From Thermoplasmatota archaeon (GTDB taxonomy: Archaea > Thermoplasmatota > E2 > JACPAO01 > JAHFTW01): a stretch of 64,000 nt of DNA. The stretch spans positions 19,502 through 83,501 of the forward strand of contig JBMYRW010000001.1 in NCBI GenBank assembly GCA_049602735.1, written 5' to 3'. Shown in pieces: positions 4,314 through 37,731 of the stretch; the stretch's first letter is position 1; every line of letters starts with the position of its first letter. Under the pieces are notes generated by a model. It was not told where the DNA came from. It was given only the letters and a program-made list of their open reading frames with translations, and searched no databases. Made by a program: the position numbers and the translations under genes.

Positions 4314-4939
4314 GCGGGGACTTCCACCTGCTCCGTCCGCTCGACCACGGTGGTCAGCGTCCCCGACACGGTGAACGGTTGCCGTGTTACGTCGATGAAC
4401 GTGCTGCCGCCGTCCTTGGCGCTGGGCCAGACCTGTAGCAGGAGTTGTTGGCCTTCGACGTCGAGCGGTCCGTCGACGGTGAAGCTGCTCGTGTCCTCGC
4501 CGTAGGCAATCTGGGTGCCGTTGGGCGCCTGGATGCTCAGGACCAGGCCGGTCTGCGTGGCGTCGGCGGGGGTCCAATCGATGGTGAGGCTGATCGCTGT
4601 GAGGTCGCCCTCGAAGTCGATGGTCGTCTGGTACGCGGGGTCTTGGACGAGGTGACCGTAGGGGCAACCGGGGAGTTGGCAGACCCAGACGCCTTCGACG
4701 GTGCTGCCCGACCAGTCCACGGGGGTCTCGGCCATCTCGGTCACCGTGATCGTCTCCGTCCGGGTGGGCCCTTCGTCGCCTCCCGCTGCGCCGCTCCCGG
4801 CGCCGTCGCCTGAGGCGGTCGCAGGGGATCCGTCGTCGCTACAGCCTGCCAGCACCAGGGCCAGCGTCACCAGAGCCACCGTCGCCATCCGCACCATCGC
4901 CGCCAAGCGTGCCCTGGGCTCCAAAACGGTTGTGGGCAC
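4310..4939 (-). CDS. hypothetical secreted lipoprotein
   Basis: N-terminal hydrophobic segment with lipobox (LVLAGCSDDG) followed by a Gly/Asp linker. I recognise no family. Its stop overlaps the convergent upstream gene's stop within CTAG at 4310-4313. Confidence 0.5.
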   Translation of the reverse strand: MPTTVLEPRARLAAMVRMATVALVTLALVLAGCSDDGSPATASGDGAGSGAAGGDEGPTRTETITVTEMAETPVDWSGSTVEGVWVCQLPGCPYGHLVQDPAYQTTIDFEGDLTAISLTIDWTPADATQTGLVLSIQAPNGTQIAYGEDTSSFTVDGPLDVEGQQLLLQVWPSAKDGGSTFIDVTRQPFTVSGTLTTVVERTEQVEVPA

Positions 4940-4951
4940 GAAGCGCGCGTT

Positions 4952-6352
4952 TCAGGCGTCAGGGCCGTACGTGGCCAGGTAGCCTTCCATGCGGAGTTTC
5001 TTGCGGGTGCGCTCGCTGCTCATGGTGCGCACCTTGCCGTAGACGTCCCGTTCCTGCCAGCCACGGTCGAAGCGGCCGAACACCCAGGCGATGCCGCTCA
5101 CACTGTTGGGGTCGCGGCCGTCGAGTGCCCACCGGTCGTTGAGGTGGAACGCCAGGCGCCACGCCTCCTCGGGGCCCGGGCTCCATTCCAGGATCCGTTT
5201 GCCCCAGAGCATGCGCAGGTGGTTGTGCAGCATCCCCGTTCGCGTCAGTTGCCGCTGCGCCGCGTTCCAGACCTCGTCGTCGGTCTCCGCCGCCTCCAGC
5301 GTGGCCGCGTCGTAGGTGGTGCGCGGGTCGTCCGCGTGGGCAGCGAGCGTGGCGCGTGCCCATTCGGGCTGGGCGGCGTACGCGGTGTTGTCGGGCCGGT
5401 GGTGGCAGTCGACGAAGCCGAGTTCCCGCCAGGTGACGAGCTGGTCCATGAACGCCTCCGCCGCTTCGCCGAGGCCCCACCAACCCTTGGAGCCGTTGGT
5501 GTTCGTGATGCGGCCGGGGTTCCAGTCCTCGGCGGCCAGGATGCGGCCGGCCACCTCGTGGGCGCCGACGTGCCCGTAGTGGAGGTAGGGACTCAGGCCG
5601 CTCGCGGCATGGGCGTCGGGGTGGCTGGCGTCCAGGTAGCCGTCCAGGCGGGCCACGAAGTCGTCCAGGCACGCCTTTCCCGCCCTGGCGCCGCCTTCCA
5701 GGTCCACTTCCCCCACGGCCTGGTCGCCGTTTCCAGGCGGACGCTGGGCGCCGTCCACCGTCGGCTCGGCCCCGTCGGCACCTTCGCAGGGGCGCGCCGC
5801 GGGCCACCAGAGATGGTCGGCCAGGTTGCGCATGATGAAGCGTCGCAGGTGGACGGCGGCGGGCCAGGTGCGGGGGGTGGCTGCAAGGGGCAGGAGGCCG
5901 TTGCCCTCGACGGCCACGGCGCGGCAGGTCACGCTGGAGGGCAAGCCGGGTCGGCGAAGGGGATGATCGTCGGTGACGAGGAGCGAGGCACCCTTGGTCG
6001 CGGTGGCCAGCAGCTCCGCGAGGGCCTTGGCGGGGGCGAAGACGGCGCGGTGAGGGATGCCGTCCTTGGCCAAGGCGGCCGCGTTGTCCGCCATGCCTTG
6101 TTCGACCCAGGCGTCGAAGCGGGGCGCCGCGTACGGTCGGTCGGTGCGACAGGTCTCCAGCACCCAGAGCCCGACGCCAGCGGCCCGAGCCCGCTGGGCG
6201 GCGTGCTGGAGGGCCGGGTTGCCCGTCATGCGCCGCGCGGTGCGGCACCAGTAGACGACGGGACCGTCCGCTTTGCCCCCTTGGGCGTCGGTCGGCAGCA
6301 CCCGGACACGGATGTCGGGCACGGCGCCGTAGGCCGCCGCGGCTTCAGCCAC
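4952..6352 (-). CDS. phr: deoxyribodipyrimidine photolyase, class II (CPD)
   Basis: The C-terminal block LHNHLRMLWGKRILEWS...LNDRWALDGRDPNSVSGIAWVFGRFDRGWQERDVYGKVRTMS matches the class II CPD photolyase signature region. Confidence 0.85.
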   Translation of the reverse strand: MAEAAAAYGAVPDIRVRVLPTDAQGGKADGPVVYWCRTARRMTGNPALQHAAQRARAAGVGLWVLETCRTDRPYAAPRFDAWVEQGMADNAAALAKDGIPHRAVFAPAKALAELLATATKGASLLVTDDHPLRRPGLPSSVTCRAVAVEGNGLLPLAATPRTWPAAVHLRRFIMRNLADHLWWPAARPCEGADGAEPTVDGAQRPPGNGDQAVGEVDLEGGARAGKACLDDFVARLDGYLDASHPDAHAASGLSPYLHYGHVGAHEVAGRILAAEDWNPGRITNTNGSKGWWGLGEAAEAFMDQLVTWRELGFVDCHHRPDNTAYAAQPEWARATLAAHADDPRTTYDAATLEAAETDDEVWNAAQRQLTRTGMLHNHLRMLWGKRILEWSPGPEEAWRLAFHLNDRWALDGRDPNSVSGIAWVFGRFDRGWQERDVYGKVRTMSSERTRKKLRMEGYLATYGPDA

Positions 6353-9200: not shown

Positions 9201-9944
9201 TTACGCTTCGGCGGGCTTCTCGTTCAGGAAACCCGTGCTACCGTACAGCACCGCCTTCTTGACGTTGCCAATGTGGCGGGTGATGTCGATGCCCTGCGGG
9301 CACGCCTCGATGCAGTTGAACACCGTGCGGCAACGCCAGACACCCGTGTACTCGTTGAGGGCCTTCAGGCGCTCTTCGTTGCCCTCGTCGCGGGTGTCGA
9401 AGACGAAGCGGCTCGCCTGCACGATCGCGGCGGGGCCGACGAACTTGTCGTTCCACCAGAAGCTGGGGCAGCTCGTGGTGCAGGCGGCGCACATGATGCA
9501 CTTGGACTGGTCGTCGATGAGCGCCTGGTCCTCGGGCGCTTGCAGGCGCTCGCGGCCGTGGGGCTCGTGCTTGGTGATCTGGTACGGCTTGACGCTCTCG
9601 ATCGAGTCGAAGAAGTGGTCCATGTCGACGATGAGGTCCTTCTTCGCCGCCAAGCCCTTGAGAGGCTCGACAGTGATCGTGTCCGGCAGGTCCTGCGCCA
9701 GCGTCTTGCACGCCAGGCGGTTCTTGCCGTTGATGACCATGGCGTCGCTGCCACAGATACCGTGGGCGCAGCTGCGGCGGTAGGCCAGGCTACCGTCCTG
9801 GTACCACTTGACGCGGTTGAGCAGGTCCAGCACACGGTCCGTGGGCTCCACGTTGTCGAGCTGGTAGCTCTCCATGTGGGCGCTCTTGTCGCCGCTTTCT
9901 GGGTTGAAGCGGGCGATGCGGAGGGTGACGTTCTTCTTGTCCAT
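9201..9944 (-). CDS. sdhB: succinate dehydrogenase iron-sulfur subunit
   Basis: Contains CAHGICGSDAMVINGKNRLACKT and the Cys clusters CIMCAACTTSCP and CRTVFNCIEACP. Confidence 0.9.
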   Translation of the reverse strand: MDKKNVTLRIARFNPESGDKSAHMESYQLDNVEPTDRVLDLLNRVKWYQDGSLAYRRSCAHGICGSDAMVINGKNRLACKTLAQDLPDTITVEPLKGLAAKKDLIVDMDHFFDSIESVKPYQITKHEPHGRERLQAPEDQALIDDQSKCIMCAACTTSCPSFWWNDKFVGPAAIVQASRFVFDTRDEGNEERLKALNEYTGVWRCRTVFNCIEACPQGIDITRHIGNVKKAVLYGSTGFLNEKPAEA

Positions 9945-9952
9945 GATCCACC

Positions 9953-11731
9953 TCAGTACACGCGCTCCACAGGTTCGTAACGGGTCACCACGACCGGCTT
10001 GTACTCCAGGCGCGGACGGCTATCGCCCTCCACGCTCTCCGGCAGGTAGGCCATCGTGTGCTTCATCCAGGTCGCATCGTCGCGCTTCGGGAAGTCGTCG
10101 CGGGCGTGGCCGCCGCGGCTCTCCTGGCGGGCCAGGGCCGCTTCCACGACGCAGAGGCTGATGTCGAGCAGGTAACCGAGCTCCAGGGCCTCCATGAGCT
10201 CCGTGTTGAACAGGCTGCCCTTGTCGGAGACGCCCACGTCCTTGTAGCGGCGGCGCAGGTCCTGGATGATCTTGCGGCACTCCGTGAGGCTCTCCTGGGT
10301 ACGGTAGACACCGCACAGCTCCATCATCTTCTCCTGCATCTCGTCGCGCAGGGCCGCCACGGACTCCTTGCCGCTGCCGGCACGAAGGGCATCCAGCTGC
10401 TTGCGGACGGCCCCCTCGGCCTCGGCGCTCGCCGAGGGGAGTTCGATCCAGTCCGCATCGGCGCAGAAGGACGCCATCGCCTTGCCGCCGCGGCGGCCGA
10501 AGACCACCAGGTCGAGCAGGCTGTTGGTGCCCAGGCGGTTGCCGCCGTGGACGCTGACGCAGGCGCATTCGCCGGCGGCGTAGAAACCGGTCACCTTGGT
10601 GTTGTCCGGCTTCCAGACCACTTCCGCGTCCACGGTCGTGGGGATGCCACCCATGGCGTAGTGCGCCGTGGGAGCGATGGGGATGGGCTCCGTCTTGGGC
10701 TCCACGCCCAGGTAGGTGCGGGCGAAGCCGGTCACCTCGGGGAGCTTCTTGTCGATGACCTCGGGGTCCAGGTGCGTGATGTCCAGGTGGACGTACTGAT
10801 CGCCCTCGGGGCCGATGCCGTTGCCGGCACGGATCTCCGTGTAGATGGCCCGGCTGACCACGTCACGGCTGGCCAGGTCCTTGATCGTCGGGGCGTACTT
10901 CACCATGAACGCCTCGTCGTTCTTGTTGCGCAGGATACCGCCCTCGCCCCGCACCGCCTCCGAGACCAGGACGCCGATGCGCCACAGGCCCGTGGGGTGG
11001 AACTGGTAGAACTCCGGGTCCTCGATGGGGATGCCGTGGCGCATGGCCAGACCGACGCCGTCGCCGGTGAGGGCGTGGGCGTTGGAGGTGACCTTCCAGG
11101 CGCGGCCGTAGCCGCCCGTGGCGAACATCACGCCCTTGGCGTGGAACGTGTGCAGCTCGCCGTTCTCCAGCTCGTAGCTCACGACACCGCAGACCGCCTT
11201 GTTGCCGTCAGCGTCCGTGGACTCGAGGATCTCGAGGACCTGGTGTTCGTTGAAGAACTGGACGCCCTCCTTGATGCATTGCTGGTACAGCGTGTGCAGC
11301 ATGGCGTGACCGGTGCGGTCCGCCGCGTGGCAGGCGCGCTCCACGGGGGCTTTGCCGTGCTCGCGGGTGTGGCCGCCGAACTTGCGCTGCGAGATGCGCC
11401 CGTCCTCCAGCCGGTCGAAGGGGAGACCCAGGTGCTCCAGGTGGATGATCGTCTCGGGCGCGTCCTTGCACATCACTTCGATGGCGTCCTGGTCTCCCAG
11501 GAAGTCGCTGCCCTTGACGGTGTCATAGGTGTGCCATTCCCAGTTGTCCTCGTTGACGTTGCCGAGGCTGGCGGAGATGCCGCCCTGCGCCGCGCCGGTG
11601 TGGCTGCGGACCGGGTACAGCTTGGAGAGGACGGCGACGTTGAGGTCGCTGTGCTTGGCGAGCTCCAGGGCCGCCATGAGGCCGGCGCCGCCGGCGCCGA
11701 CGACGACCGCGTCGAACTTGTGGTACGTCAT
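9953..11731 (-). CDS. sdhA: succinate dehydrogenase flavoprotein subunit
   Basis: Has the FAD dinucleotide-binding N-terminus [13 protein letters not shown], the motif [11 protein letters not shown] (covalent-FAD His region) and HGANRLG-like [18 protein letters not shown]. Confidence 0.95.
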
Positions 11732-12273
11732 GGGGAACCTCCCGTGGAAGGAGCGACCTTGGGCATCGCCATGCCATTGCCGGAGGCCGGCTCGCTGCCG
11801 GCGCCGCCGGTCTCGGAGCCCTCCATGCCGGGGTCCATGGCACCGCCGTCCATTCCTTCGCCGTCGTCGTGCGCCGCGCCGTGGTCCTCGCCGGAGAGGT
11901 CGAGGGTGAACAGCACCGCGGTGCCCGCCACCAGGAAGGCGCTGAACGTCACGAAGAGGAGCGTCAGCCAGGCGTTGCGCTTGGCGGGCTCATGGACGTG
12001 GTCGTCGATGAGGTTCTTCAGGCCGTTGACACCGTGGCCAAGGCCGAGGAACAGGAGCAGGAAGTCGACGACGATGAGGATCGGCCACGTGGAGAGACGG
12101 GTGATCACCAGGTCGTAGTTGAGGTCGCGGACATCCGTGTGGATGTGGTTGAGCCACAGGTGGAAGAGCGCCAGGAAGACCAGCAGGAGGCCGCTCCAGC
12201 GCATGTAGTACCAGAGGAACACCTCGCGGCGGTTGCCCGGGGCCGGCTTGGCCGAGCCCGACATGAAGCTCAT
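11728..12273 (-). CDS. sdhD: succinate dehydrogenase membrane subunit (SdhD-like) with Gly/Asp/Glu-rich C-terminal tail
   Basis: ATG at 12273 (MSFMSGS...) overlaps the sdhC stop as ATGA. Three hydrophobic helices carry His residues. Its stop overlaps the sdhA start as ATGA. The listed 259-aa ORF has a spurious N-terminal extension. Confidence 0.6.
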
Positions 12274-12695
12274 GCGTGACCTCCGTGGGCGGCAGTGTCC
12301 ATCCAGGGCCAGCCGTCGTAGTCGATCAGCAGCGGCTTGGCGACGTAGATGAGCGCCAGGATCGTCAGGCCCATCACCACGTACCACATCTGCTTCTGGT
12401 ACGCCGACGAGGCCTGCCAGAAATCGACGATGATGATGCGCAGACCGTTCATGGCGTGGTACACGACCGCGGCGATGAGGCCGAACTCGCCGATGCGGAA
12501 GTACCACGAGTCATAGACACTGATCGCCTCGTTGTAGGCCTCCGGGCCCAACAGGAGCATGAAGTTCTCCACCAGGTGGACGAACAGGAACAGGATGATC
12601 GCCACCCCCGAGACACGATGAAAGATGTAGGCCAACTGGCCTTCCTTGAGTTGGTACACAGGCACCCTCCGACGGAGGGCCGACCCAGTGGTCAT
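12270..12695 (-). CDS. sdhC: succinate dehydrogenase cytochrome b subunit (SdhC-like)
   Basis: 141 aa with 3 TM helices, conserved His residues (FHRVSGV, VYHAMNG), and the first position in the sdhCDAB order. Confidence 0.7.
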   Translation of the reverse strand: MTTGSALRRRVPVYQLKEGQLAYIFHRVSGVAIILFLFVHLVENFMLLLGPEAYNEAISVYDSWYFRIGEFGLIAAVVYHAMNGLRIIIVDFWQASSAYQKQMWYVVMGLTILALIYVAKPLLIDYDGWPWMDTAAHGGHA

Positions 12696-12731
12696 ATAAA
12701 ACGGGTCGACAGCGGCGGGGCGGGCGCCACG

Positions 12732-12947
12732 CTACTCTTCTTCCTCTTCCTCATCCCGCAGCGCCGCCACGAACGCCTTGTAGTCCGATTCGCGGTCGAA
12801 CTCGATGGGCGTGCCCTGCCAGTGGCAGTCGTCGCAGACCCACTTGAAGAGCTCCCCGCCGTCAGCGAAGAGGCCGTCGGACAGGGTGAGTGGCCGCAGC
12901 TTGAGGCTCCCGCAGCGGAGGCAGCAGACGATGCGTTCCCGGCCCAT
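12732..12947 (-). CDS. small zinc-ribbon protein with acidic tail
   Basis: 71 aa starting at ATG 12947: MGRERIVCCLRCGSLK...WVCDDCHWQG, i.e. CxxC...CxxC, ending in EEEEEE. These are the only plausible coding codons of the listed 926-aa ORF. Confidence 0.5.
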   Translation of the reverse strand: MGRERIVCCLRCGSLKLRPLTLSDGLFADGGELFKWVCDDCHWQGTPIEFDRESDYKAFVAALRDEEEEEE

Positions 12948-13034
12948 GCGGGGCCACGGTGGGCGGCCCTCAAGGGGGTTTGGCTTTCCTGGTAGCGTCA
13001 CAAAGCGCTTGAGCGGAGGGGGCTTGGCGGAGGT

Positions 13035-13484
13035 ATGCGAGCATGGATGGTGGCCCTCCTGGTGGCCGCGGCACTTTCTGGTTGCGCCGATGACGATGGC
13101 GATGACGGAGCCGGCGACGCGGCCGGCGATGGCGCGGGCCTCATGGACGGCGATGACATGGGCGGCGACGGCATGGAGCGCCAAGTGGTACAGGTGACCG
13201 TGAGCGCCGAGGGCATCTACCCGGCCAACCCGAGCCTGGCCCCGGCTCGGCTGGAGGTCCCCGCCAATGCGACGGTGGAGTTGACGTACATCAACAACGA
13301 CCCGAACCCGGTCGTCGTGCATGACTGGTTCGTGGAAGGCATCGGAGCGCAGACGGCCCAGCTCGGGAGCGGCGAGTCGACGACGATCTCCTTCGAGACG
13401 GGCGCGCCGGGCGAGTTCGCGTACTGGTGCGCCGTGGGCGACCACCGCAGCGCCGGCATGGAAGGCGTGCTCGTGGTGGCCTAG
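13035..13484 (+). CDS. type-1 (blue) copper protein, plastocyanin/halocyanin-like lipoprotein
   Basis: Signal peptide plus lipobox (AAALSGCADDD), an acidic linker, and the cupredoxin ligand pattern H...YWCAVGDHRSAGM (Cys-His-Met). Confidence 0.8.
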   Translation: MRAWMVALLVAAALSGCADDDGDDGAGDAAGDGAGLMDGDDMGGDGMERQVVQVTVSAEGIYPANPSLAPARLEVPANATVELTYINNDPNPVVVHDWFVEGIGAQTAQLGSGESTTISFETGAPGEFAYWCAVGDHRSAGMEGVLVVA

Positions 13485-13538
13485 GCGCCCCGGCCCACAG
13501 GCGAACCGCCAAAGCGCCGCGGCGTTCATGGGTCTGCC

Positions 13539-17491: not shown

Positions 17492-17866
17492 ATGGGTTCA
17501 CCCTGCGAGACCACGGACGGCGGCTGCCAGATCGGCGAACTGTTCCAGCTGCTGGGGCGCCCCCACATGCTCGACATCACCCACATCCTGTTCCGCGAGG
17601 CCGACGGGCCCGTCCGCTTCGTCGACCTCCAGAAACGCCTCGGCCTGTCCCCCAACACCTTGAGCGCCCGGCTCAAAGCGCTCGTGGAGGCCGGTCTCGT
17701 CACGCGCACCGCGTACAACGAGATCCCGCCCCGCGTCGACTACGAGGCGACCGCCAAGGCCCGCGACCTCTGCACCGTCTTCGCCGCGCTGCACGAATGG
17801 AGCAGCAAACACGACCTGCGTCCCGAGCCGACGGCGGAAGCGGTGACTGTGTTGGCAAAGGCATAG
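17492..17866 (+). CDS. HxlR family winged-helix transcriptional regulator
   Basis: CQIGELFQLLGRPHMLDITHIL...FVDLQKRLGLSPNTLSARLKALVEAGLVTRTAYNEIPPRVDYEAT is the canonical HxlR (DUF24) pattern. Confidence 0.85.
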   Translation: MGSPCETTDGGCQIGELFQLLGRPHMLDITHILFREADGPVRFVDLQKRLGLSPNTLSARLKALVEAGLVTRTAYNEIPPRVDYEATAKARDLCTVFAALHEWSSKHDLRPEPTAEAVTVLAKA

Positions 17867-17943
17867 CCATCGAATTCTCCGTACTTGCCCACCGAACCGG
17901 CGCCAAATTCAACATCAATGAATGCAATGCCCTTCGAAGGAGT

Positions 17944-20900
17944 TCACGGGGTTGCTGGGATATCGGGAATAGCCGATTTCGGTTGAGAACCAACCGCCCT
18001 CGATGTCTCCGCAGTCTCGATTCCGTTCAGTGGTGGTGCCTCCTTCGCATCACCCAGCGATGGGGAATCCTCTAACCCTTTGGCAGCCCCCGATTCCCCC
18101 AGGCCATGTGGAGCTGGTTCAGACGGGCCAACATTTGCAAGATCCAGAAGCCGATAGTCACCTGGCACAACATGCACGGGTCGTTGCAATCCAGGCGGCA
18201 AGACCCCTTCCAATTCAGCTAGACTATGCAGGCCTTGCAACACTTCACCGTAAGTCCCCTGCGATGCGACTCGTATCGTCGTGGCCGACCCAGGATCTGA
18301 AAGCAATTGACGCGCAAATGCATCACTTGATCGGACGTCTCTAGTGATTAAGGCCCGGTCGCCAACGAAACCCATGATCGGAAGCCGCCACAGTTGGTGC
18401 CCCGCACCGAACCGGCGTAGCTGAGGCGCATCATCACGAAGCGCTGGTACGTCCATGGCAGCATTCAGTAGCAAACCCAAGTAGTACGTTCTGTTTCGAT
18501 TGACATGCTGGACGATTGGATGCTCGGCCCCGCCCCCTTGCGCCACCTGATCGCGCAAAGAAGCAACCCCCATCAATAATGATTGATCAAGAATGTCGGG
18601 GGCAAAGAATGACATGAAATCCAGAATGTTCGTTGCGTCAAACAATGTACCCGGCGAACGTGGCACAGACGTAATATGTTCCAAGTAGATTTCCTTTACA
18701 TCTTCTACGTGCGATAATACCAAGAAATTCTCGTACACCGTCCATTTCAGGAGGTTCGTGGCGCGGGAAAGAAGTGGCGAGATCTGATCGATTGTGCGAA
18801 CAAGCGCTGTCTCGAGGCTCTTGATCGTCGCCTGAGTCTTTTTCACTTGATTGTTGATGCGAGACTCGGCTGCCGCCATGACCGCTGATGCCTCTTGGGT
18901 TGCATCCGTCGTGGATGATGCGACCGCTGAGCTGCTCAACGCCTGCGCAAACTGCGCTGTTGTGCTGGCTCTGGAGCTGCTGTGGGCGACGGCCACGGAG
19001 GCCACGAACGGAATGCTGGCGCCGGCGGTCACGGCAGTCGAACTCACGTTGGTTTCCGTGCTGGCATTGGTCCGATTTGCCATGTGACTGGCTTCGGACA
19101 GCAGGGATTCAACGGTGTTCGCTTGGTGAGCTGCCTGTTCTGCCGTCGACACAATATCTTCGATTGCCTGCGCTGAAACCTGTTCCGCGCGAGACTTGAT
19201 CCGCTCAACAGTATCCTTCGACTCGCGAAGGACCTGCCCCGGCGCGAGGCTCTGTAGGTTGGCAAGGCTACCCAAGCTGTAGCCTACAAACGCCCATTCC
19301 TGCCTGACCGTCACCAGATACCGGCGACGGGGCAGCCCCTCCTCCGAAACAGGGCTGACCCGGGTCATCTTCAGCCTCCTGACGGTACGCGTTCGACCGG
19401 CCCCGTTCCCATCGGAAAGATCCAGCTGCGGCAACAAGGGACTCGAGCAAGCATAGTTGAGGCGCAAGAGGTCGTCGTACAACGAAGGTGAGAATACACT
19501 GGGCAATCGCGGCAGTGGATCGACCGCTGCATGGCTTTCAAGAGGCCCTAGCTGATCCACAACGATCGAAACAAAGGCATGTTGGGATTCTTCGGGAATC
19601 TTGAAAACCGCCTTGACGAGACCAGATGCGAGTCGGCCAGCTTCGATCACGCCCGTTGAAGCAGAGGTATTCCCTCGCGGGAACAGCAGGATCGCGATTC
19701 CTCCAGCGTTGGTGCGGGTGCGGTCGACGAGACGCTCATGCTCATCGTAGAGCCGAACCGGGTGTCCTGAAACGGCATTTCCGTCCTGGTCGGATACGAC
19801 CGCCAAGGCCATCTTTGTCCGCCGCCCATCACTGATTTCGTTGCCACGCCCAGCCAATCTGGGATTCGTATCCAACATGCTGCGCATGCGCGAATCGGAA
19901 TCAGAAAAGCCCTGCTCGGCGGCCTTCCTTACGCCGGGGGATGCGAACTCATCATCGATGGCGGCAACGGCCGCCTCTTGGTCACGGACCGCCTGGTCCA
20001 TCGCGTTCTGCAGATCTCGCTCCATTGCTTCCGCGGCCTCCGCCGACACGTTGGCCAGAGCCTCCGCAAGTTCTTCTTCATGCAGAGCTTGGAGCCGCAC
20101 GATACGTTCTTCGAGGTCCTGTGATCCCTCCAGCCGTATTTGATCGACGGCTGCCTGACGAACCCCCGCCTCTCGGGCCTTAAGCCCACCAAGATCGCGG
20201 TCCAGATTCAGGGGGGATTCTTCAACAACGCGGATGATCTGCGCCTGATATTCCGCTGTCTTGGCTCTAAGTTTGTCACTCCTTATGATAACTTGCGAAA
20301 TTTGGCGCTCGGCCTCGGCGACTTCAGCCCGCACCGAATCCTCGAGTTGCCGATCAGCGCTGGCTTCATCTCGGAACCCTTGCGACTCGATTTCCATTTG
20401 TTCCGCTTCCGCCTTCGACTGATCGATTTGGTCCTGGACCACCCCATATTGTCGCTCTTCAGCAACAACCAATTTCTCATATCGTACGGCCTCGTTCTTT
20501 GCCTCATCCTGGTCCGCGATTGCCTTGCGCAGCGCCTCCTTTTTCTTGGCCAACGTGCCGCGGAGGTTAGCGAGCTCCGCCTGGTGAGCCTGAGCTTCTT
20601 GCGCCGAGGAACCCGATTCTCGTTCCAATTCCCTTGCCTGCGCAGCCAGGTTCTCGGCATCCAACCTGGCCTTCGCGCGTGTCGCATCATGGCCGGCCCA
20701 GATCGATTGGTAGGCAGGATCCTTGTAGAGCCAGTTGCGCTTGTAGGAGGAAATTTTGTTATCGGGAATGCCATGCGATTTTTTGATGTCTGGATAGCTC
20801 CCTGCCCTCAAGCTCCACTTCCGACCTTTGGGCTTTCCTCGATTATAGCTTACGTGCTCAAAGAAAATCCATTCCCCTTCCGAAATACGCACCGCCGAGG

Positions 20901-21000
20901 CACGGTCGTTGAACGCTCTGCCGACCCATGACGAATCTGAATTGGAAGAAATGGATTGCCCCTTAAAATTTCGCTTCTCCCATAGGGTAACAATGCTCAT
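17944..21000 (-). CDS. uncharacterised 1018-aa protein: beta/gamma-crystallin-like domain, long coiled coil, beta-sandwich module and large conserved C-terminal core
   Basis: A long uninterrupted ORF in lower-GC DNA. Residues 3-88 carry two Greek-key motifs (WEKRNFKG...FNDRASAV; FFEHVSYNRG...PDNKISSY). Residues ~105-355 are heptad-like and Ala/Glu/Gln/Arg-rich. Residues 398-441 (VVSDQDGNAVSGHPVRLYD...TRTNAGGIAILLF) look like a CarboxypepD_reg-type sandwich. Residues ~555-925 are paralogous to the 885-aa ORF. Confidence 0.75.
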   Translation of the reverse strand: MSIVTLWEKRNFKGQSISSNSDSSWVGRAFNDRASAVRISEGEWIFFEHVSYNRGKPKGRKWSLRAGSYPDIKKSHGIPDNKISSYKRNWLYKDPAYQSIWAGHDATRAKARLDAENLAAQARELERESGSSAQEAQAHQAELANLRGTLAKKKEALRKAIADQDEAKNEAVRYEKLVVAEERQYGVVQDQIDQSKAEAEQMEIESQGFRDEASADRQLEDSVRAEVAEAERQISQVIIRSDKLRAKTAEYQAQIIRVVEESPLNLDRDLGGLKAREAGVRQAAVDQIRLEGSQDLEERIVRLQALHEEELAEALANVSAEAAEAMERDLQNAMDQAVRDQEAAVAAIDDEFASPGVRKAAEQGFSDSDSRMRSMLDTNPRLAGRGNEISDGRRTKMALAVVSDQDGNAVSGHPVRLYDEHERLVDRTRTNAGGIAILLFPRGNTSASTGVIEAGRLASGLVKAVFKIPEESQHAFVSIVVDQLGPLESHAAVDPLPRLPSVFSPSLYDDLLRLNYACSSPLLPQLDLSDGNGAGRTRTVRRLKMTRVSPVSEEGLPRRRYLVTVRQEWAFVGYSLGSLANLQSLAPGQVLRESKDTVERIKSRAEQVSAQAIEDIVSTAEQAAHQANTVESLLSEASHMANRTNASTETNVSSTAVTAGASIPFVASVAVAHSSSRASTTAQFAQALSSSAVASSTTDATQEASAVMAAAESRINNQVKKTQATIKSLETALVRTIDQISPLLSRATNLLKWTVYENFLVLSHVEDVKEIYLEHITSVPRSPGTLFDATNILDFMSFFAPDILDQSLLMGVASLRDQVAQGGGAEHPIVQHVNRNRTYYLGLLLNAAMDVPALRDDAPQLRRFGAGHQLWRLPIMGFVGDRALITRDVRSSDAFARQLLSDPGSATTIRVASQGTYGEVLQGLHSLAELEGVLPPGLQRPVHVVPGDYRLLDLANVGPSEPAPHGLGESGAAKGLEDSPSLGDAKEAPPLNGIETAETSRAVGSQPKSAIPDIPATP

Positions 21001-22211
21001 CGTACATCCTTCCCGTTCTGCTGTAGTTGGGTTTTCGCATCTGCCTCCTGTGTTTGGCCGGCAATGAGCTTCGTCGCTCCTTGATGGAACTCGGGCTCCG
21101 CTCGGGAAGTGTTTGCCAAGGAGGCGGCCTGTTGGACCGATTTCCGGGGCGCTGCCATGGAAAGGAACGCCAGCTCCGGAATCGAATTCAAAGGAAGGTC
21201 CGGCAGTTCCATTTCATCGATGCTCTCGATCCGTTGGGCTTGTTTCTCGTCCGCCTCCATCGCCTCCAGGTACGCAAGCTCTTCAGGCGTTGGCACCAAA
21301 GCTTCGTCCAATCGAATTTCAGCGGCCTGTTGGGCCTCAGCTACTGCGTGTTCTGTTCTTCTTTCTGCGAACTCTTTGAATTCCCCCACCGTTACCTTGT
21401 TGGCTGCGGCAGCCTTGCGCCGTGCCTGCCCGATGGCTGATTCACGTAGAGCTTGTGCCTGGGAAGCGAAGTCCTTCAGGGCTTCTTCCCGCAGCGTCGA
21501 AATTCGCTCCACTTCGGCCGCCTTTGCATCGGCGAGCTCCCGCCCATGCAGCTGTTGGGCCTCGAGAAGGTGCCTTCTGCGATGTCGCGCGGCCTCTCGG
21601 ATGGTCTCTGCGAGTTTTGCACTGGACTCTGTTTCAAGGGAAGCCGCATGCGCCAGCTCAGAATTGGCGTGGTCCAACCGTGACCGCTCGAACCGAATCT
21701 CTTCCTTCGCCGCCTGAAGCGTAGCCGATGCTGCACTCCGTTCGGTTTGGGCCGCCTTTTTTTTGGTAGCAGCATCAAACCTTTGTTTGGACGCGAGGCC
21801 TAGGGTTTCCTTGGATCGCTCCACCCTTTTGCGGAGGATTTCATACTCCTGCTTGAGCCGCGATGCTTGCGCATTGGCGTCGCGAGCGGTCTGCTGCTGA
21901 ATCGAGAGCTCCGCATCAAATTTTGTCAATTCGTCCCGGGCAATCTCAACTTCCTGCCTCAGCTCGTCGAGGCGATCTGCATCAACAAGGCTGGCCCTAG
22001 CAGCATCGATTTTTTCGCGATGGGATTGAGCATTCTTTCGGTATTGTTCCAACTTTTTTTGATGTTCCGTCTCGGCTGCACCATGCGCGCTTCTTGCCCT
22101 TCGCTCATCGTTCGAACGAATCGCTGCGTCCATCTCGTCGCTGTAGAAACCGTAGATGGACCAACCATCGCTCGATGTTTTCACGGCAGCACCAGGCGCT
22201 ACAGCACCCAC
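20997..22211 (-). CDS. uncharacterised coiled-coil protein (404 aa from GTG 22211; alternative ATG at 22133)
   Basis: Almost entirely Glu/Ala/Arg/Gln/Lys-rich heptad-like sequence with no other motif. Its TGA stop overlaps the ATG of the 1018-aa gene (ATGA at 20997-21000). The start is uncertain because the first in-frame start codon is GTG. Confidence 0.65.
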   Translation of the reverse strand: MGAVAPGAAVKTSSDGWSIYGFYSDEMDAAIRSNDERRARSAHGAAETEHQKKLEQYRKNAQSHREKIDAARASLVDADRLDELRQEVEIARDELTKFDAELSIQQQTARDANAQASRLKQEYEILRKRVERSKETLGLASKQRFDAATKKKAAQTERSAASATLQAAKEEIRFERSRLDHANSELAHAASLETESSAKLAETIREAARHRRRHLLEAQQLHGRELADAKAAEVERISTLREEALKDFASQAQALRESAIGQARRKAAAANKVTVGEFKEFAERRTEHAVAEAQQAAEIRLDEALVPTPEELAYLEAMEADEKQAQRIESIDEMELPDLPLNSIPELAFLSMAAPRKSVQQAASLANTSRAEPEFHQGATKLIAGQTQEADAKTQLQQNGKDVR

Positions 22212-22296
22212 GGACCATTTAGCTTCATCGGCCCAAGTTGCAAGTCGGGATGGTTGCCGCGATAAATCACGGGAACTGCAGCAACTGATGCTAATC

Positions 22297-22422
22297 CCAA
22301 GATCGTTTGGCTGACGCCTCTGTTGTCATGATCTTGGAGTGGCGAGGATTGGATAGAAGCGCTCCGTAAATCTCTTCAATGGCGCGGCCTTTCTAGGGCT
22401 GACGAAAAGAGCTGTTCGTCAG
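22297..22422. promoter_or_regulatory. divergent control region of the island genes with two perfect 8-bp inverted repeats
   Basis: CCAAGATC (22297-22304) / GATCTTGG (22330-22337) with a 25-nt spacer. CTGACGAA (22399-22406) / TTCGTCAG (22415-22422) with an 8-nt spacer, ending 15 nt before ATG 22437. A/T-rich TATA-like elements are ATAAAT at 22262-22267 and TAAATC at 22367-22372. Confidence 0.3.
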
Positions 22423-22436
22423 GACAAGAAGAGCCC

Positions 22437-25094
22437 ATGCTTCCACCATCCAAATCCTCTGGCCGTATTGGCCGGCTGAGCAGGTCGAAGGGATTGGCCC
22501 CTGGCGATGTCCTCACGGTGCGCGGCAAGGAGCTTCGAAGCTTTGCGGGCGGTAGCCTTACGGGGTCCCAAAAGCTTCGCATCGAACGGCTGGCAGGAAC
22601 AAGGCTTGTGGCCCTGAAAATTGACGGCAGTCCAGATTATCTTGGCTCGCCCGATGACCCTGGAAGGCCGACGACCTCATTGGCCCGGGTAGCCCCAAGT
22701 GATGCCAATTCCAAGATTGCCCTATTTGAGATGGAGGGTAACCAACTTAGGCTAGGGAGGTTCCTGCCACCGGGCAACATCCCCGGGGATGCCGAGATCA
22801 GCCTGAGTCAGCCGGTCAAGAAACGGGTAGATGCGTTGCCTTCTGGCCCGAACAGGTCGATTCCCGATCCCCCCGAAACGCAACCAAAGGTCGAGATTTC
22901 AACGCAGCTGGACTCCACGGAGGGATCGTCCAATCCCTCTGCGCCCGCGGCTGACATGAATGGCTACCAAGCCATCGTTGCTGCAGTCCGGGATCATGAC
23001 GGAAACGTAGCCTCTGGCGTCCTTGCGCGTCTGCGACGTGGACAGCGGGTCCTGGACGTGACGCGAACAAACCACCAAGGCATGGCCTTGCTGCTCTTTG
23101 GGGAACCTTCAGCTGGCTTGTCTGAACCAAGCGATTCGAAGGCCCCATTTTCCATCGAAGTGATTGCCAAGGACGAAGTTGTATCGGTCGAACTAACCCA
23201 CACAGACGGAGACATTGGAATCGTGGACGTCCAGATCAATGAAACGCCCAAGTTGACGGCTACGGCACCCAATCTCTTGGCCCGGCTTCCGGCCGAACAT
23301 AGCCCCCAACTTGCATCCACGCTGATCACAATTGCTGGGGCATCCTCCCAAATGGATGAGGTCGCCGCCAAGGATCGGGGCGATCGCGTCCGCCATTTCC
23401 GTCGTCACGTGGCTGTTCCACGCATCGGCCCAGACGGTGGCCGGTTCCTCGTGATGGTGCGCCAGGACTGGACCTATCTTGGCGAGGCCTTGGGCAACAT
23501 CCACGATGCGAATGCAATCCTCCCACAGCAGACTGCGACCAGCGAACGGTCGACAAGTGATCAGCTTTCAAGCGAAGCTCTTGGAGCTACGCTGCCTTAC
23601 GATCGGATCGCAAACCGGATTGTGGGTCGGCCAAGACTCGAAGAACAGACACAGCCCACGGAGCCAGCCCTGGCGATCCACTCCCTCCCGTCGCTGGCGG
23701 GCTTCTGGGTCGCGGATGGTCGCTTCGATCTCGTCTCAAAGGAAGCAAACCAAGCGGTAAGAGACCAAGCTGAGCGACTGATTGGTGCAAAAAAGATTAA
23801 TCGTCAACCAGAGGCCCGCACGATCGAACAGCGGTCCCCTGACGCACTGCGTGCCACCAATTTCCTGAATATCGACTTGAATGAAAGGTTCTTGGTGCGT
23901 AGTGCGATCGAGACCGTGTTTCGCGTGGACGGCCTTGTGCCATCACCACAAGACGCCACAACCGTGCCAAGCTTGACGGTTCGAGAGTTGCTTGCCATGT
24001 GGCCCGTTTGGAGCGAGCTGCTCCGCTTTGATGGCGTTCTGGAGGATCAACGGTTGCTCCAGGAAATGGTGGAACGCGAGCGCGTTGACCTAGCCGTCCC
24101 GTCCGAGATTGAAATCGTTCTTGATTTTGAATCCATGCTAGCGGATGGACTTGCAACGCTCCGCGTGGGGCAGGACACCGCAAAGGCCGTACTTCCAGCC
24201 GGAAAAGGTACGGTGACGATCAGCGTCCAGAATCCCTCCAACCGCTCTCGGCGAGACATCAGGGAATTTGTACTGGAACTAAGCCTGGAAGTTCCATCGA
24301 CGTCCATCAGTATTGATGGAGATCAGGACAACGCCGATCTTCGGGAGCTCTTGGAGCGCGTGCATCGGTCCAGCAGGGATGATCTGCTCGATCAGGCCAG
24401 CATCACAGTTTCCCCAGTGGCAGCACATTTCCAATCGAAGGAAGGCACCCTAGAATCCATCGATTCGATTGAGGTGGTCGGATCGCGGTTCCTAAGAGGC
24501 CCCGAGAAGCGCCGCTGGACCTTCGACGTAACTCCCGAGAAAATTGATGCGCGGAAAGTGAATTCCATCGTTGACCACATCCTAGACCAGCAAGGGAGGT
24601 ACTTGCGAACAGCCCTGGCGGCGGCTTGGAAGTTCCCGGAATGGCGCCAACGCCTTCAATCTCTCTTGGGAATCGATGCCGATGATTCCGTATGGGAGTC
24701 GAAATTGATTGGCTTTGATGGCGCGTCGGCCTTGTACGTGGTTCCCGCCCACCAGGACGATGCCTTCGCGAAGGAGCTCCTTCGTGACCCTGGATCGGCC
24801 ATGCTTGTTCATCTCCCTACGGGGTCGACGTTTACCCAAACCAGCCCGATTGATGTGGAGGCGCCTTCCGACCTCCATGCGGAAGCCGATGGCGTCAAGC
24901 AGGGCCGCTCTTTGGAACTGGCCCGGTCGATGTTGCAACAACTAGGCGTTGATGCCACACTGGCGGAACTGATGCCAAAGGATCCAAACCTTTCTCCAGA
25001 TTCTGTCGATCGTCCTGGCCGAACGGAGGACCTGACGAAAACCACCGAAACCATCGTGAAAAAACTCCATGAGCAATCGAGCCAGATTGCCTAG
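22437..25094 (+). CDS. uncharacterised 885-aa protein, paralogue of the C-terminal two-thirds of the 1018-aa protein
   Basis: It shares colinear motifs with the 1018-aa ORF: VRDHDGNVASGVLARL...TRTNHQGMALLLF; GRFLVMVRQDWTYLGEALGNI; NFLNIDLNERFLVRSAIETV; GFDGASALYVVPAHQDDAFAKELLRDPGSA. It has a unique ~175-aa N-terminus and no signal peptide. Confidence 0.75.
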   Translation: MLPPSKSSGRIGRLSRSKGLAPGDVLTVRGKELRSFAGGSLTGSQKLRIERLAGTRLVALKIDGSPDYLGSPDDPGRPTTSLARVAPSDANSKIALFEMEGNQLRLGRFLPPGNIPGDAEISLSQPVKKRVDALPSGPNRSIPDPPETQPKVEISTQLDSTEGSSNPSAPAADMNGYQAIVAAVRDHDGNVASGVLARLRRGQRVLDVTRTNHQGMALLLFGEPSAGLSEPSDSKAPFSIEVIAKDEVVSVELTHTDGDIGIVDVQINETPKLTATAPNLLARLPAEHSPQLASTLITIAGASSQMDEVAAKDRGDRVRHFRRHVAVPRIGPDGGRFLVMVRQDWTYLGEALGNIHDANAILPQQTATSERSTSDQLSSEALGATLPYDRIANRIVGRPRLEEQTQPTEPALAIHSLPSLAGFWVADGRFDLVSKEANQAVRDQAERLIGAKKINRQPEARTIEQRSPDALRATNFLNIDLNERFLVRSAIETVFRVDGLVPSPQDATTVPSLTVRELLAMWPVWSELLRFDGVLEDQRLLQEMVERERVDLAVPSEIEIVLDFESMLADGLATLRVGQDTAKAVLPAGKGTVTISVQNPSNRSRRDIREFVLELSLEVPSTSISIDGDQDNADLRELLERVHRSSRDDLLDQASITVSPVAAHFQSKEGTLESIDSIEVVGSRFLRGPEKRRWTFDVTPEKIDARKVNSIVDHILDQQGRYLRTALAAAWKFPEWRQRLQSLLGIDADDSVWESKLIGFDGASALYVVPAHQDDAFAKELLRDPGSAMLVHLPTGSTFTQTSPIDVEAPSDLHAEADGVKQGRSLELARSMLQQLGVDATLAELMPKDPNLSPDSVDRPGRTEDLTKTTETIVKKLHEQSSQIA

Positions 25095-25133
25095 TGCATC
25101 AGGGTATTGCAGCGTTCTCGAGGTAGATCTCAC

Positions 25134-35737: not shown

Positions 35738-37666
35738 CTACAACGCTTCCACGTCGAGGATCAAGCCGGCCTGCACGGCGCTCGCGATCGCCTTGGCCTC
35801 CGGCGTGTTGGCCTTGAACCGGAGCTTGCCGTCCTTGCTGGCCAGGCCGGCAGCGACCTCGGAGCCTTCGATGAGCACGCGGATCTCTTGGCTGCCATAG
35901 CCGGGGCCCGCCAACACGAACAGGTTGCTGCCGGTCTTCTTGACGCGCACCTCGCCGGGACCCCCACGAGGCCCGCCGGAGCCAGCCGACCCGCCCTGGG
36001 CCCGCTTGCCGCCGCCCTTGCCGCGTTCACGGGGTCGCACGTCGAGGCGGATGCCGAGCCGGCGCTCCAGGCCCTGGACGGTCTTCCCGCCTTTGCCGAT
36101 GAGGCTGGGGACCTCTTCCTGGTCGACGAACACGGACGCCCGGTTACCGTTCACCTGCACTTCGAAGGGGCCGTGGACGTAACGCCGCAGGGCCCGGTTG
36201 AGCTCCCGTTCCGCCAACGCGGAGGCACCGCTACGACGCCGGCCCGCTGGCACGCCCGGGGCGCCGGCCATACCGCCATCGAGGGGCATGACGACCACCT
36301 GTTCACCGTACGTGTAGAGCTCGAAGCACTCCTGGCGGGTCTGAAGGTCTGTCACCACGACGACAGGGCGCGCCAGGTCCTCCTGCATCATGCCGGAGGG
36401 GACGCGCACCGTGAACGTCAGCTCCAGCACCTGGGCGACGGCGCCTTCGTCGATGAAGACCACGGTATCGACCACCTGGGGGATCATGCCCAGTTCGACG
36501 CGGCCGATGAGCCGCTGCACGGCGTCGATGGCGCGGCTGGCGTGGGTGACGCCGAAGAGGCCGATGCCCGCCATCCTCATGTCGGCGAAGACCCGGAAGT
36601 CGCCCGTCGTACGCACCTCGTCATACACCACGTGGTCGGGGCGCACCAGGAGCATCACCTCGCCGGTCCACTGCATGTCCCGGTCGAGGGCGCCGTACTG
36701 GGTCACCTCCTTGGGCACCTGCAGGTCGCGGGGCTGCTCCATGGTCTTGACGACGCGGTCCAGGCCGTGCAGGTGCTCCGCCAACGCGGCGGCGAAGGTC
36801 GACTTGCCGCTGCCCGGAGGTCCTGCGATGAAGACGCCGCGGCTCTTGCCCAGCGCCCGCTCCAGCACCTCTTCGGGCAGGTCGTAATCGTCCAGGCCGA
36901 GCTTGACGACGGGGCGCACCGCGGTCACTTCGAGGCCATCCGCGAAGGGCGGCTGCGCCAGCGTGACGCGCATGGGCCCCATCTGGATGACCGTGCAACC
37001 GTGGCGCTCCAGCTCGATGAAGGAGTTGTAGTCCCGCTTGGCGAACTCGATCGCCTCCCGCGACAACGCCCGCAGCTCCTCGTGGGCGATCGGCGTGGGT
37101 GCCCGCGTGGCATTTTCGCCGCCCGCGGGCTCGTAGCTGAGCCCGGCCGGCGTGCCCCGCTTGACCATCGGGATGCAGTCCGCCTTCAGGTGGACGCTCA
37201 TCACGTCATCGTCGAAGAACCGCCACAGCGCCAACTGCTCCATGGCGGGCGGGTCGTCCACCACGGGCCGCAGGTACAGGTGCTCGACCCCTGCCGCGGC
37301 CGCCGCATACGCCTGGACGCGGTCACTGGTCACCAGGACGCCGCCCTTCTGCGCCGCCGCCACGTCACGGATGGCCGCATCGATGGCCCCCTCGCCCGCC
37401 GCAGCGATCTCCGCAGGCCCAGGACGCTCACCGAAGATCTCGACGCGGACGTCGCCGGCCTCCGCCGCACGTTGCAGGCGCCGCAGTTCATCCAGGCCGG
37501 CGAAGCCAGTCTCCTGGCCACGGTTCGCCTGCGCTTCCAGCTCAGCCAGCGCCGCGCGGGGGATGACGACGCGGGCATCAGCGTGGGCCGGTTCGGCCAG
37601 CAGTTCATGCATGCGGCCATCGACGAGGACCGACGTGTCCGGGACCAGGGTGACGGTCACGGCCAT
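35738..37666 (-). CDS. PIN-domain / PilT-like ATPase / KH-domain protein (COG1855-type)
   Basis: ATG at 37666 (MAVTVTLVPDTSVLVDGR is PIN-like). Walker A is IAGPPGSGKSTFAAALAE. The C-terminal KH motif is IGKGGKTVQGLERRLGIRLDV. Confidence 0.8.
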   Translation of the reverse strand: MAVTVTLVPDTSVLVDGRMHELLAEPAHADARVVIPRAALAELEAQANRGQETGFAGLDELRRLQRAAEAGDVRVEIFGERPGPAEIAAAGEGAIDAAIRDVAAAQKGGVLVTSDRVQAYAAAAAGVEHLYLRPVVDDPPAMEQLALWRFFDDDVMSVHLKADCIPMVKRGTPAGLSYEPAGGENATRAPTPIAHEELRALSREAIEFAKRDYNSFIELERHGCTVIQMGPMRVTLAQPPFADGLEVTAVRPVVKLGLDDYDLPEEVLERALGKSRGVFIAGPPGSGKSTFAAALAEHLHGLDRVVKTMEQPRDLQVPKEVTQYGALDRDMQWTGEVMLLVRPDHVVYDEVRTTGDFRVFADMRMAGIGLFGVTHASRAIDAVQRLIGRVELGMIPQVVDTVVFIDEGAVAQVLELTFTVRVPSGMMQEDLARPVVVVTDLQTRQECFELYTYGEQVVVMPLDGGMAGAPGVPAGRRRSGASALAERELNRALRRYVHGPFEVQVNGNRASVFVDQEEVPSLIGKGGKTVQGLERRLGIRLDVRPRERGKGGGKRAQGGSAGSGGPRGGPGEVRVKKTGSNLFVLAGPGYGSQEIRVLIEGSEVAAGLASKDGKLRFKANTPEAKAIASAVQAGLILDVEAL

Positions 37667-37731
37667 GGACTGCCATGCCGGGGGATAACCGTGGGCCGCT
37701 TGCTTCCAGTGGAGCGGGGGGCGCAGCCCAG

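Follow-up and report, generated by a model that had tools for sequence, protein, structure and literature searches.

Divergently encoded paralogues and a coiled-coil partner form a conserved, compositionally foreign cassette in a Thermoplasmatota archaeon

Three adjacent genes, here called A, B and C, lie within a 64,000-nucleotide stretch of a Thermoplasmatota archaeon genome (contig JBMYRW010000001.1 of assembly GCA_049602735.1; this whole stretch is hereafter the window, and coordinates are counted from its first nucleotide). A and C encode large proteins that share a core of about 600 residues, and B, which lies between them, encodes a coiled-coil protein. Judged from their sequences, A and C are true, anciently diverged paralogues. 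Their core defines a very rare and unannotated family that is not matched to known folds, and the three-gene cassette is conserved and compositionally foreign. Taken together, the paralogy, the family and the conserved cassette can be regarded as close to certain. The mechanism proposed for them, in which the cassette would encode a mobile, hetero-oligomeric, membrane-targeting assembly working in the manner of multi-component α-pore-forming toxins while not belonging to their family, is put forward tentatively.

The relationship between A and C is recovered by pairwise alignment. BLASTP returns two significant segments, the first joining A residues 399-768 to C residues 181-494 (E 5e-17, 28% identity over 385 columns) and the second joining A 829-917 to C 711-799 (E 3e-10, 34% identity over 89 columns). 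The top score of 73.9 bits compares with a mean of 18.7 bits (standard deviation 2.2, maximum 26.9) for 100 shuffles of C, and the BLAST E-values and the shuffle test together rule out chance similarity. A preliminary description of this DNA had proposed by eye that the two proteins are paralogues with a shared core, and the alignments bear this out. The five motif pairs on which it relied are present and colinear, at A residues 401, 559, 749, 832 and 877 and at C residues 184, 335, 475, 714 and 759. Its nucleotide ranges translate to the peptides quoted for them, except that 19264-19320 and 23445-23501 begin two codons into the 21-residue motif.

The core has no match in Pfam, NCBIfam, PADLOC or PHROGs, nor in PDB sequences searched both with the single sequence and with a family profile, which agrees with the initial impression that it could be assigned to no named family. 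Word-indexed searches of 5.8 billion proteins recovered 21 clusters, and a third search gave the same 21 proteins. When 1.84 billion cluster representatives were searched exhaustively with a HMMER profile, 111 were recovered at E≤1e-3 and 65 at E≤1e-30. Gene A is itself on record as P0020, derived from a metagenome-assembled genome (MAG) and named 'beta/gamma crystallin-related protein [Thermoplasmatota archaeon]' for its crystallin; all other named members are 'hypothetical protein'. The spread obtained with a hidden Markov model (HMM) of the core, a search that the preliminary description had envisaged, is patchy and covers bacterial MAGs and Thermoplasmatota archaea. The genome matches are all MAGs and belong to Chloroflexia/Chloroflexota, Pyrinomonadaceae, Thermoanaerobaculia, Frankiales, Mycobacteriales, a 'Proteobacteria' bin and Thermoplasmata. 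Longimicrobium is also among the sources, and some metagenome contigs with family genes have a guanine-plus-cytosine (GC) content of ~40%. A metagenome scan with P0049, the closest relative of A, found nothing, a scan of IMG/VR found no family relative, and BFVD structures gave no match at E≤1e-3. Neither A nor C matched a catalogued defence protein in PADLOC-DB, and no paper describing this family was found in the literature.

Canonical members of the family are single genes encoding ~800-950 residues, and a single copy is present in all bacterial loci and in one Thermoplasmata locus (L009). The accessory modules attached to the core include one to three βγ-crystallins, a fascin-like β-trefoil, ChW repeats, a coiled coil and C-terminal collagen repeats. 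A weaker tier consists of Bacteroidota hypothetical proteins of 1100-1800 residues, including Belliella WP_188443527.1 and a Lentimicrobium protein, whose hmmsearch matches (E 1e-7 to 1e-3) always start at about profile position 294; hhalign gives E 6.5e-10. Like the family, these proteins possess signature strands of the form 'W..G..LGE....L.PG' followed by a helix, a Gly-rich stretch and another helix. However, only ~280 residues align, the remaining architecture differs, and the Bacteroidota proteins are equally uncharacterised.

The architecture of the core was modelled with AlphaFold2 from 22-sequence alignments, using A residues 395-1018 (model 1) and residues 233-861 of the canonical Chloroflexia member P0004 (model 2). 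The two models agree on the architecture, with a mean predicted local distance difference test score (pLDDT) of 66.5 and 68.6, respectively. In canonical order, the proteins comprise an accessory module, a first β-sandwich, two long strands, a hairpin, a third strand, a helical unit, a second sandwich, a C-terminal domain and a Pro-rich tail. The first sandwich resembles 3e8v in the PDB (Foldseek E 2.8e-4, template modelling (TM) score 0.76 on the target) and many transthyretins, whereas its Pfam matches to bMG3 (E 0.022) and CarboxypepD_reg (E 0.039) both fall short of the cutoffs. The two long strands carry the family signature RRYLVxVRQEWxFLGYTLGEL (motif 2; more loosely RRYLVxVRQEWxFxGYxLGxL), with invariant R, Q, W and G columns; the third strand reads SPLLSRVTNLLRWTxYENYAV. 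Between them stands the hairpin, consisting of two helices of ~45-60 residues (~150-170 residues in all) and modelled with a disordered tip. The second sandwich, which is found in canonical members and in C, is predicted with good confidence (model 2 strands 346-473, pLDDT ~85-93). Model 2 matched 1hpl, a lipase in which the PLAT domain is presumed to be the part concerned (E 3.3e-3, root-mean-square deviation (rmsd) 4.7 over 139 columns, with the aligned query range not reported), and a perforin C2 domain (E 0.03, TM score 0.33 on the target). The family profile has no match to C2 or PLAT in Pfam. The C-terminal α/β domain, although modelled with a pLDDT above 90, has no significant Foldseek match in the PDB or BFVD. 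Overall, fold recognition with both models against these two databases returned generic β-sandwich matches only and left the strand-hairpin core unmatched. After the C-terminal domain, most family members carry the motif HPALLPP..P..PP.ALVDLTGK (P0004 ~835-860; A ~945-960: VVPGDYRLLDLANVG), followed by Pro/Thr-rich or collagen-like tails.

The hairpin tip is hydrophobic in most members, with a 19-residue Kyte-Doolittle mean of 1.5-2.0 and often a central Pro, and 29 of 55 members carry a GxxxGxxxG glycine zipper there. A and C have none. In A, STAVTAGASIPFVASVAVA is the sole 19-residue segment of this hydrophobicity; it occupies the glycine-zipper site of canonical members and carries a small-xxx-small pattern in place of the zipper. 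In C, a remnant of 100 residues, compared with ~150-165, retains the weak hydrophobic patch ALAIHSLPSLAGFWVA and lacks GxxxG. The sub-threshold matches of the family profile to DUF6861 (E 0.0017) and C19orf12 (E 0.0016), together with weak matches to HlyE and to the crAss-phage cargo protein gp45, fall on or around the tip and are attributable to its hydrophobic, often GxxxGxxxG-containing sequence. The family is like the glycine-zipper modules DUF6861, which occurs at the N-termini of polymorphic toxins, and C19orf12 in possessing such a stretch. It is unlike them in that the matches lie under the Pfam thresholds, the zipper is internal and placed at the tip of a long hairpin, and A and C themselves lack GxxxG. 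According to its published description, DUF6861 is an integral membrane domain of glycine-zipper type that accompanies toxin domains (bioRxiv 10.1101/2022.08.23.504947).

The two paralogue types differ in the parts of this core that they have kept. The A-type proteins, namely A, P0049 and P0021, skip profile positions ~575-715, which correspond to the second sandwich. In A itself the family HMM aligns at positions 11-577 and 717-865, and columns ~715-890 of alignment A1, composed of A, C and 11 outside homologues (13 sequences), are gapped in A alone at the junction between GGGA and EHP. The preliminary description had interpreted this difference as a ~150-residue insertion in C. The polarity is the reverse: C shares the block with every one of the 11 outside homologues, P0049 and P0021 lack it as A does, and it is an ancestral domain deleted from the A-types. 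C, in turn, skips positions 383-448, which form the tip, and its relative P0060 skips 323-479, the whole hairpin. The conserved positions are also unevenly retained: of the 18 in the SPLLSR strand, A keeps 16, P0060 9 and C 7, and of the 38 in the C-terminal domain they keep 31, 25 and 14, respectively; the tip of P0060 has a hydropathy of 0.12. All 13 sequences of A1, C included, have the residues that are invariant in the family's signature strands and C-terminal domain (R, Q, W, G, H, Y, P, R, W, G, F, G, D and G). The two types show complementary domain erosion, the A-type having lost the second sandwich and the C-type the hairpin tip.

The N-terminal modules of the two proteins differ, as the preliminary description had held. 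In A, a βγ-crystallin domain occupies residues 4-88 (PF00030, E 4.9e-12; the score of 46.2 bits exceeds the cutoff of 25, and the match covers positions 2-81 of the 82 in the profile) and is followed by a region of coiled-coil composition in which Ala, Glu, Arg, Lys, Gln and Leu make up a fraction of 0.61 and Pro 1%, with weak SMC-type matches. The closest solved relative of the crystallin is the archaeal M-crystallin of Methanosarcina acetivorans (PDB 3hz2/2k1w, E 3.4e-12), and like it the domain carries candidate motifs of the Ca-binding type. Microbial Ca-binding βγ-crystallins are recognised by two N/D-N/D-x-x-S/T-S motifs per domain; in A, DNKISS (80-85) fits this pattern and NDRASA (31-36) is an imperfect candidate that ends in Ala. 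Unlike M-crystallin, A extends far beyond this domain: the similarity spans 85 of its 1018 residues, and the other ~930 have no solved relative. Residues 1-178 of C have no match in Pfam, NCBIfam, PADLOC or PHROG, and Pfam detects no βγ-crystallin in C. This region is also dissimilar to the N-terminus of P0060 and to the accessory modules of relatives. Its identification as a degenerate β-trefoil or as a module shared by the C-types was considered and rejected for want of support. The start of C differs by source, with 885 residues from the ATG at 22437 in Logan and 828 residues in NCBI (P0038), whose start lies near the TTG/GTG at C codons 57-58 (22437-22610).

Gene B ends within the start of gene A, the stop codon of the one and the start codon of the other sharing four nucleotides (ATGA). 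The fraction of Ala, Glu, Arg, Lys, Gln and Leu in B (0.62) is close to that of the A coiled coil, and the two are of similar length. B has no family match in Pfam, NCBIfam, PADLOC or PHROG; its comparison with PADLOC yielded coiled-coil-type matches only, all weak and non-significant (best JetC3, E 0.017). A paralogous origin of B from the coiled coil of A was rejected, as similarity between them is undetectable.

The arrangement of the three genes recurs on a second archaeal contig. P0049, the closest relative of A (E 2e-139, 39% identity), has the same succession of crystallin, coiled coil and short core, and it is encoded on a 28-kb ENA contig (L016) together with archaeal genes for ribosomal proteins S27e and S24e, Spt4 and Rpb7. 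On this contig P0060, a C-type protein of 934 residues, is divergent from a gene for a 361-residue Ala/Glu/Arg-rich coiled-coil protein, and the end of the latter overlaps the start of the P0049 gene by four nucleotides, exactly as B overlaps A. The coiled-coil protein and the coiled coil of the A-type protein are again matched in composition (AERKQL fractions of 0.75 and 0.76) and similar in length. C is closer to P0060 (E 3e-33, 26% identity over 646 columns) than to A; in the family tree it forms a long orphan branch, and P0060 is its nearest neighbour in a distance tree once P0038, the shorter-start version of C, is set aside. The two cassettes lie among unrelated genes. Both cassettes also differ in composition from their surroundings: the GC content is 57% compared with 69% in the window, and 78-83% compared with flanks of 66-73% on L016. 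At 3001-11000 of L016, stop-free frames far overrun the called genes, and an open frame of 1394 codons spans a gene called at 1004 residues. Neither cassette has a tRNA, an integrase or a clear flanking repeat, the window cassette also lacks an Rfam match and an integrase-like neighbour, and a prophage or integrative element was rejected on these grounds and for the lack of IMG/VR relatives.

Another archaeal contig (L005) carries two family genes 1 kb apart that are each other's closest relatives. One encodes P0021, a short-core protein with crystallin and fascin-like modules, and the other a full-core protein of 1598 residues with three crystallins (hhalign E 2e-101). Each is preceded by a divergent gene for a single-pass membrane protein of ~300 residues (4824-5747 and 9399-10331, both on the minus strand); these two proteins are mutual paralogues (E 1.4e-7) and have no counterpart in the window. 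This pattern suggests that a unit of two genes was duplicated in tandem here independently. Across the family loci, no neighbours are shared except in the L016 cassette, in these paralogous membrane proteins and in one pair of syntenic contigs described below.

In the mechanism proposed here, the cassette would be an accessory module that moves horizontally, and its three products would assemble into a single hetero-oligomer. The partner of B would be the coiled coil of A, which is of equal length and matched composition, and A and C would contact each other by the signature strands and C-terminal domain that both retain. C would then supply a sandwich that docks to lipid or to a surface, A would supply a hydrophobic hairpin that enters the membrane, and the Ca-binding-type crystallin of A may serve as a targeting or binding head. 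Assembly is proposed because of the translational coupling of B and A, the matched coiled coils, the shared retained strands and C-terminal domain, and the complementary losses. A membrane target is proposed because the tip carries a glycine zipper or is hydrophobic, the second sandwich is weakly C2/PLAT-like and the accessory modules are of binding type. The idea of a hetero-oligomeric pair had been raised in the preliminary description, and the recurrence of the cassette and the complementary losses lend it real but indirect support. A hetero-oligomer of the cassette products is about evenly balanced between true and false, and membrane insertion or pore formation is possible but rather doubtful.

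Several observations weigh against this mechanism. Neither the PDB profile search nor Foldseek gave a sequence or fold match to any known pore-forming toxin. The hairpin is modelled with a pLDDT of 25-66, a low confidence (low to moderate in A, with the tip below 50 in model 1), and the hydrophobicity of the tip is borderline in A (1.53) and weak in C (0.89, the highest 19-residue value in its hairpin). The resemblance of the second sandwich to C2 and PLAT domains is below significance, with no match at E≤1e-3. B is not recognisable as a homologue of the 361-residue middle protein of L016 (E 2.5), the divergent C and B-A arrangement is known from two archaeal contigs only, and the L005 copies each have a different partner, so that pairing is not uniform. 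In addition, a crude hydropathy test found a signal-peptide-like N-terminus in none of 58 full-length members, which leaves export unexplained.

The known systems nearest in organisation are the bi- and tripartite α-pore-forming toxins of the ClyA family, such as YaxAB/XaxAB, AhlABC/SmhABC, Hbl and Nhe. In these multi-component toxins, adjacent paralogous genes divide membrane docking from insertion of a hydrophobic hairpin or 'head'. The proteins have long helical hairpins with a hydrophobic tip, and several lack a classical signal peptide. By analogy only, A and C are similar in being adjacent paralogues with differing tips, in a layout conserved on L016, where A keeps the hydrophobic hairpin tip and C a sandwich of predicted lipid-binding type; docking and insertion might be divided between them in the same way. 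In contrast, HlyE matches the family profile with an E of 1.2 and over the tip only, no ClyA-family chain is among the Foldseek matches listed for either model, and outside the hairpin the family is rich in β-structure, having two sandwiches and long β-strands as well as a C-terminal domain of its own. Membership of the ClyA family is therefore not supported by sequence or fold. A further lead comes from βγ-CAT of the toad Bombina maxima, a complex of a βγ-crystallin-fused aerolysin-like protein with a trefoil factor. A likewise fuses an N-terminal βγ-crystallin to a putative membrane-active module within a proposed hetero-complex, but Pfam detects no aerolysin domain in A, and the organisms and partner proteins are unrelated.

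A somewhat unlikely alternative is that A and C are independent paralogues, that is, self-sufficient effector- or adhesin-like proteins with different targeting modules that became adjacent through local duplication or a shared island. Most family members are indeed single-copy and evidently function alone, the N-terminal modules are highly variable across the family, and the L005 pair resembles a recent tandem duplication of a two-gene unit. This explanation does not account for the differing losses of core parts that nearly all stand-alone members keep, nor for a layout of A-type, C-type and coiled-coil genes that is maintained in another genomic context, with its orientation and four-nucleotide overlap, at 26-39% protein identity. 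The suggestion of a duplicated effector with swapped targeting modules, made in the preliminary description, likewise leaves the complementary erosion of the core unexplained.

An improbable reading is that the products build a structural envelope or surface assembly, such as a stalk or an adhesin-like structure, with coiled-coil spacers and exposed binding domains and without membrane perturbation. The long coiled coil, Ig-like sandwiches and Pro/Thr-rich tails would suit this role, and Protein S and other microbial βγ-crystallins belong to cell surfaces or spore coats. Foldseek also matched the Sulfolobus S-layer stalk protein SlaB (E 1.1e-3), but at an rmsd of 54 Å the alignment is not a real superposition. 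Moreover, there is no signal peptide or terminal membrane anchor, the family is far too rare and patchy for such a function, and the cassette is an island of foreign composition.

Slightly harder still to credit is an intracellular defence of the abortive-infection type, in which the hairpin would damage the cell's own membrane once the accessory domains sensed infection. The absence of signal peptides and the compositionally foreign, accessory nature of the cassette are consistent with it. So is the setting of a distant superfamily relative, P0136 (1167 residues; 10001-13504 on ENA ERZ27250434 / ERZ27250415, L021/L022), which lies among two MmeI-type restriction-modification genes, an HNH nuclease gene, a faint AbiGi match and a HepT/MNT pair. 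However, such a setting was seen this once and not in three other distant relatives, which, like all close family loci, lie amid housekeeping genes. PADLOC was negative for the core and gave B the non-significant matches described above. The crystallin, ChW, collagen and fascin-like modules are, furthermore, typical of extracellular proteins. Finally, that C is a decaying, functionless duplicate, with A and B alone active, is very improbable: its low retention of conserved positions and its orphan long branch would fit decay, but its 885-codon frame is uninterrupted in DNA of 57% GC, it keeps the family-invariant residues, and P0060, a counterpart in a second archaeon that shares its losses, also has an intact gene at only 26% identity, which implies long-term maintenance.

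The positions of the cassette and its parts are collected in Table 1. The flanks of the cassette fit an archaeon, as they encode a DtdA-type D-aminoacyl-tRNA deacylase, DUF531 and a PIN-domain ATPase. In an 877-residue open reading frame (ORF) at 37732-40365 (minus strand), the last ~210 residues correspond to the D-aminoacyl-tRNA deacylase PF04414 and the first ~660 have no family match; either the ORF has been extended too far, as can happen in high-GC DNA, or the protein may be a novel fusion. In the 674-residue ORF at 35738-37762 (minus strand), a PIN domain at the N-terminus is joined to an ATPase domain of T2SSE/PilT-like type. Two further ORFs on the minus strand, of 629 residues (45884-47773) and 677 residues (55484-57517), have no Pfam match at E≤1e-5. 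Among the other family loci, JAJPHT010000039.1 from a 'Proteobacteria bacterium' MAG (L008; the same region as L018) is syntenic with JAXDQU010000064.1 from a 'Thermoplasmata archaeon' MAG (L009). The two are 83-87% identical in nucleotide sequence over the family gene and its neighbours, and both have ~71% GC, yet one is labelled bacterial and the other archaeal; the explanation is either a mislabelled bin or a very recent transfer between domains. Near a Chloroflexia family gene, an unrelated ribonucleotide reductase gene, split by an intein that contains a LAGLIDADG endonuclease domain, lies at 19378-22673 (minus strand) of its contig (L001).

Table 1. Cassette genes and their parts in the window
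Feature	Position	Strand	Basis or remark
Compositional island over A, B and C	17800..25100		52-61% GC vs 66-75% in flanks; drop coincides with the genes
Gene A (= P0020), A-type	17944..21000	-	1018-aa ORF; 100% match to P0020
A residues 4-88, βγ-crystallin	20737..20991	-	Pfam PF00030 and PDB relatives
A residues ~96-390, predicted coiled coil	19831..20715	-	Ala/Glu/Arg/Lys/Gln/Leu-rich
A residues 395-481, transthyretin/CarboxypepD_reg-like β-sandwich, motif 1	19558..19818	-	Model 1 residues 1-87, pLDDT ~80-90
A residues 539-581, two long β-strands, motif 2	19258..19386	-	Model 1 strands 145-154, 166-187
A residues 587-739, long helical hairpin with Ser/Thr-rich disordered tip	18784..19242	-	Model 1 helices 193-252, 290-352
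A residues 654-672, STAVTAGASIPFVASVAVA, hydrophobic core of hairpin tip	18985..19041	-	Kyte-Doolittle 19-aa mean 1.53
A residues 740-775, ISPLLSRATNLLKWTVYENFLV, long β-strand, motif 3	18676..18783	-	Model 1 strand 357-381; 16/18 conserved positions
A residues 822-828 (GGGA-EHP), junction of missing ancestral ~140-aa β-sandwich	18517..18537	-	Alignment A1, HMM
A residues 829-929, conserved C-terminal α/β domain, motifs 4 and 5	18214..18516	-	Model 1 pLDDT >90; 31/38 conserved positions
A residues 930-1018, Pro-rich tail, predicted disordered	17947..18213	-	pLDDT 30-47
Gene B, coiled-coil partner	20997..22211	-	404-aa ORF (378 aa from Met27)
Divergent B-C intergenic region	22212..22436		Both promoters presumed here from gene orientation
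Gene C, C-type, strongly diverged	22437..25094	+	885-aa ORF; HMM positions 11-382, 449-872
C residues 1-178, N-terminal region then Pro-rich linker	22437..22970	+	Matches nothing
C residues ~180-262, β-sandwich homologous to A 395-481, motif 1	22974..23222	+	BLASTP; 9/16 conserved positions
C residues 335-355, GRFLVMVRQDWTYLGEALGNI, signature strands, motif 2	23439..23501	+	BLASTP
C residues ~364-463, shortened proline-containing hairpin remnant	23526..23825	+	HMM positions 383-448 missing
C residues 466-494, degenerate SPLLSR...YENY strand, motif 3	23832..23918	+	7/18 conserved positions
C residues ~554-706, ancestral β-sandwich block	24096..24554	+	Aligned with block of outside homologues
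C residues 707-800, C-terminal domain, motifs 4 and 5	24555..24836	+	BLASTP E 3e-10; 14/38 conserved positions

In its strongest form, the proposal is that the cassette encodes a previously unrecognised, multi-component, membrane-inserting machine of new fold, mobile between archaea, that arose by duplication and complementary degeneration from a single-chain ancestor now scattered among soil and sediment bacteria. Among described archaeal systems, it would then be the first of several components to form pores or perturb membranes, possibly as a fusogen. Stated in full, this is unlikely. To our knowledge, very few protein toxins or membrane-attack systems have been described in Archaea. If the proposal is true, it would add a membrane-active protein family of new fold, and it would provide a natural example of a self-sufficient protein that became an obligate complex of two paralogues and a coiled-coil protein through complementary loss. 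The mobile cassette would, in addition, offer a testable route into archaeal antagonism or defence. Whatever the mechanism, the family comprises ~65-110 clusters at 50% identity, with a ~600-residue core that has no coverage in Pfam, NCBIfam or the PDB, and it presents a well-defined target both for solving a structure and for establishing a new domain family.

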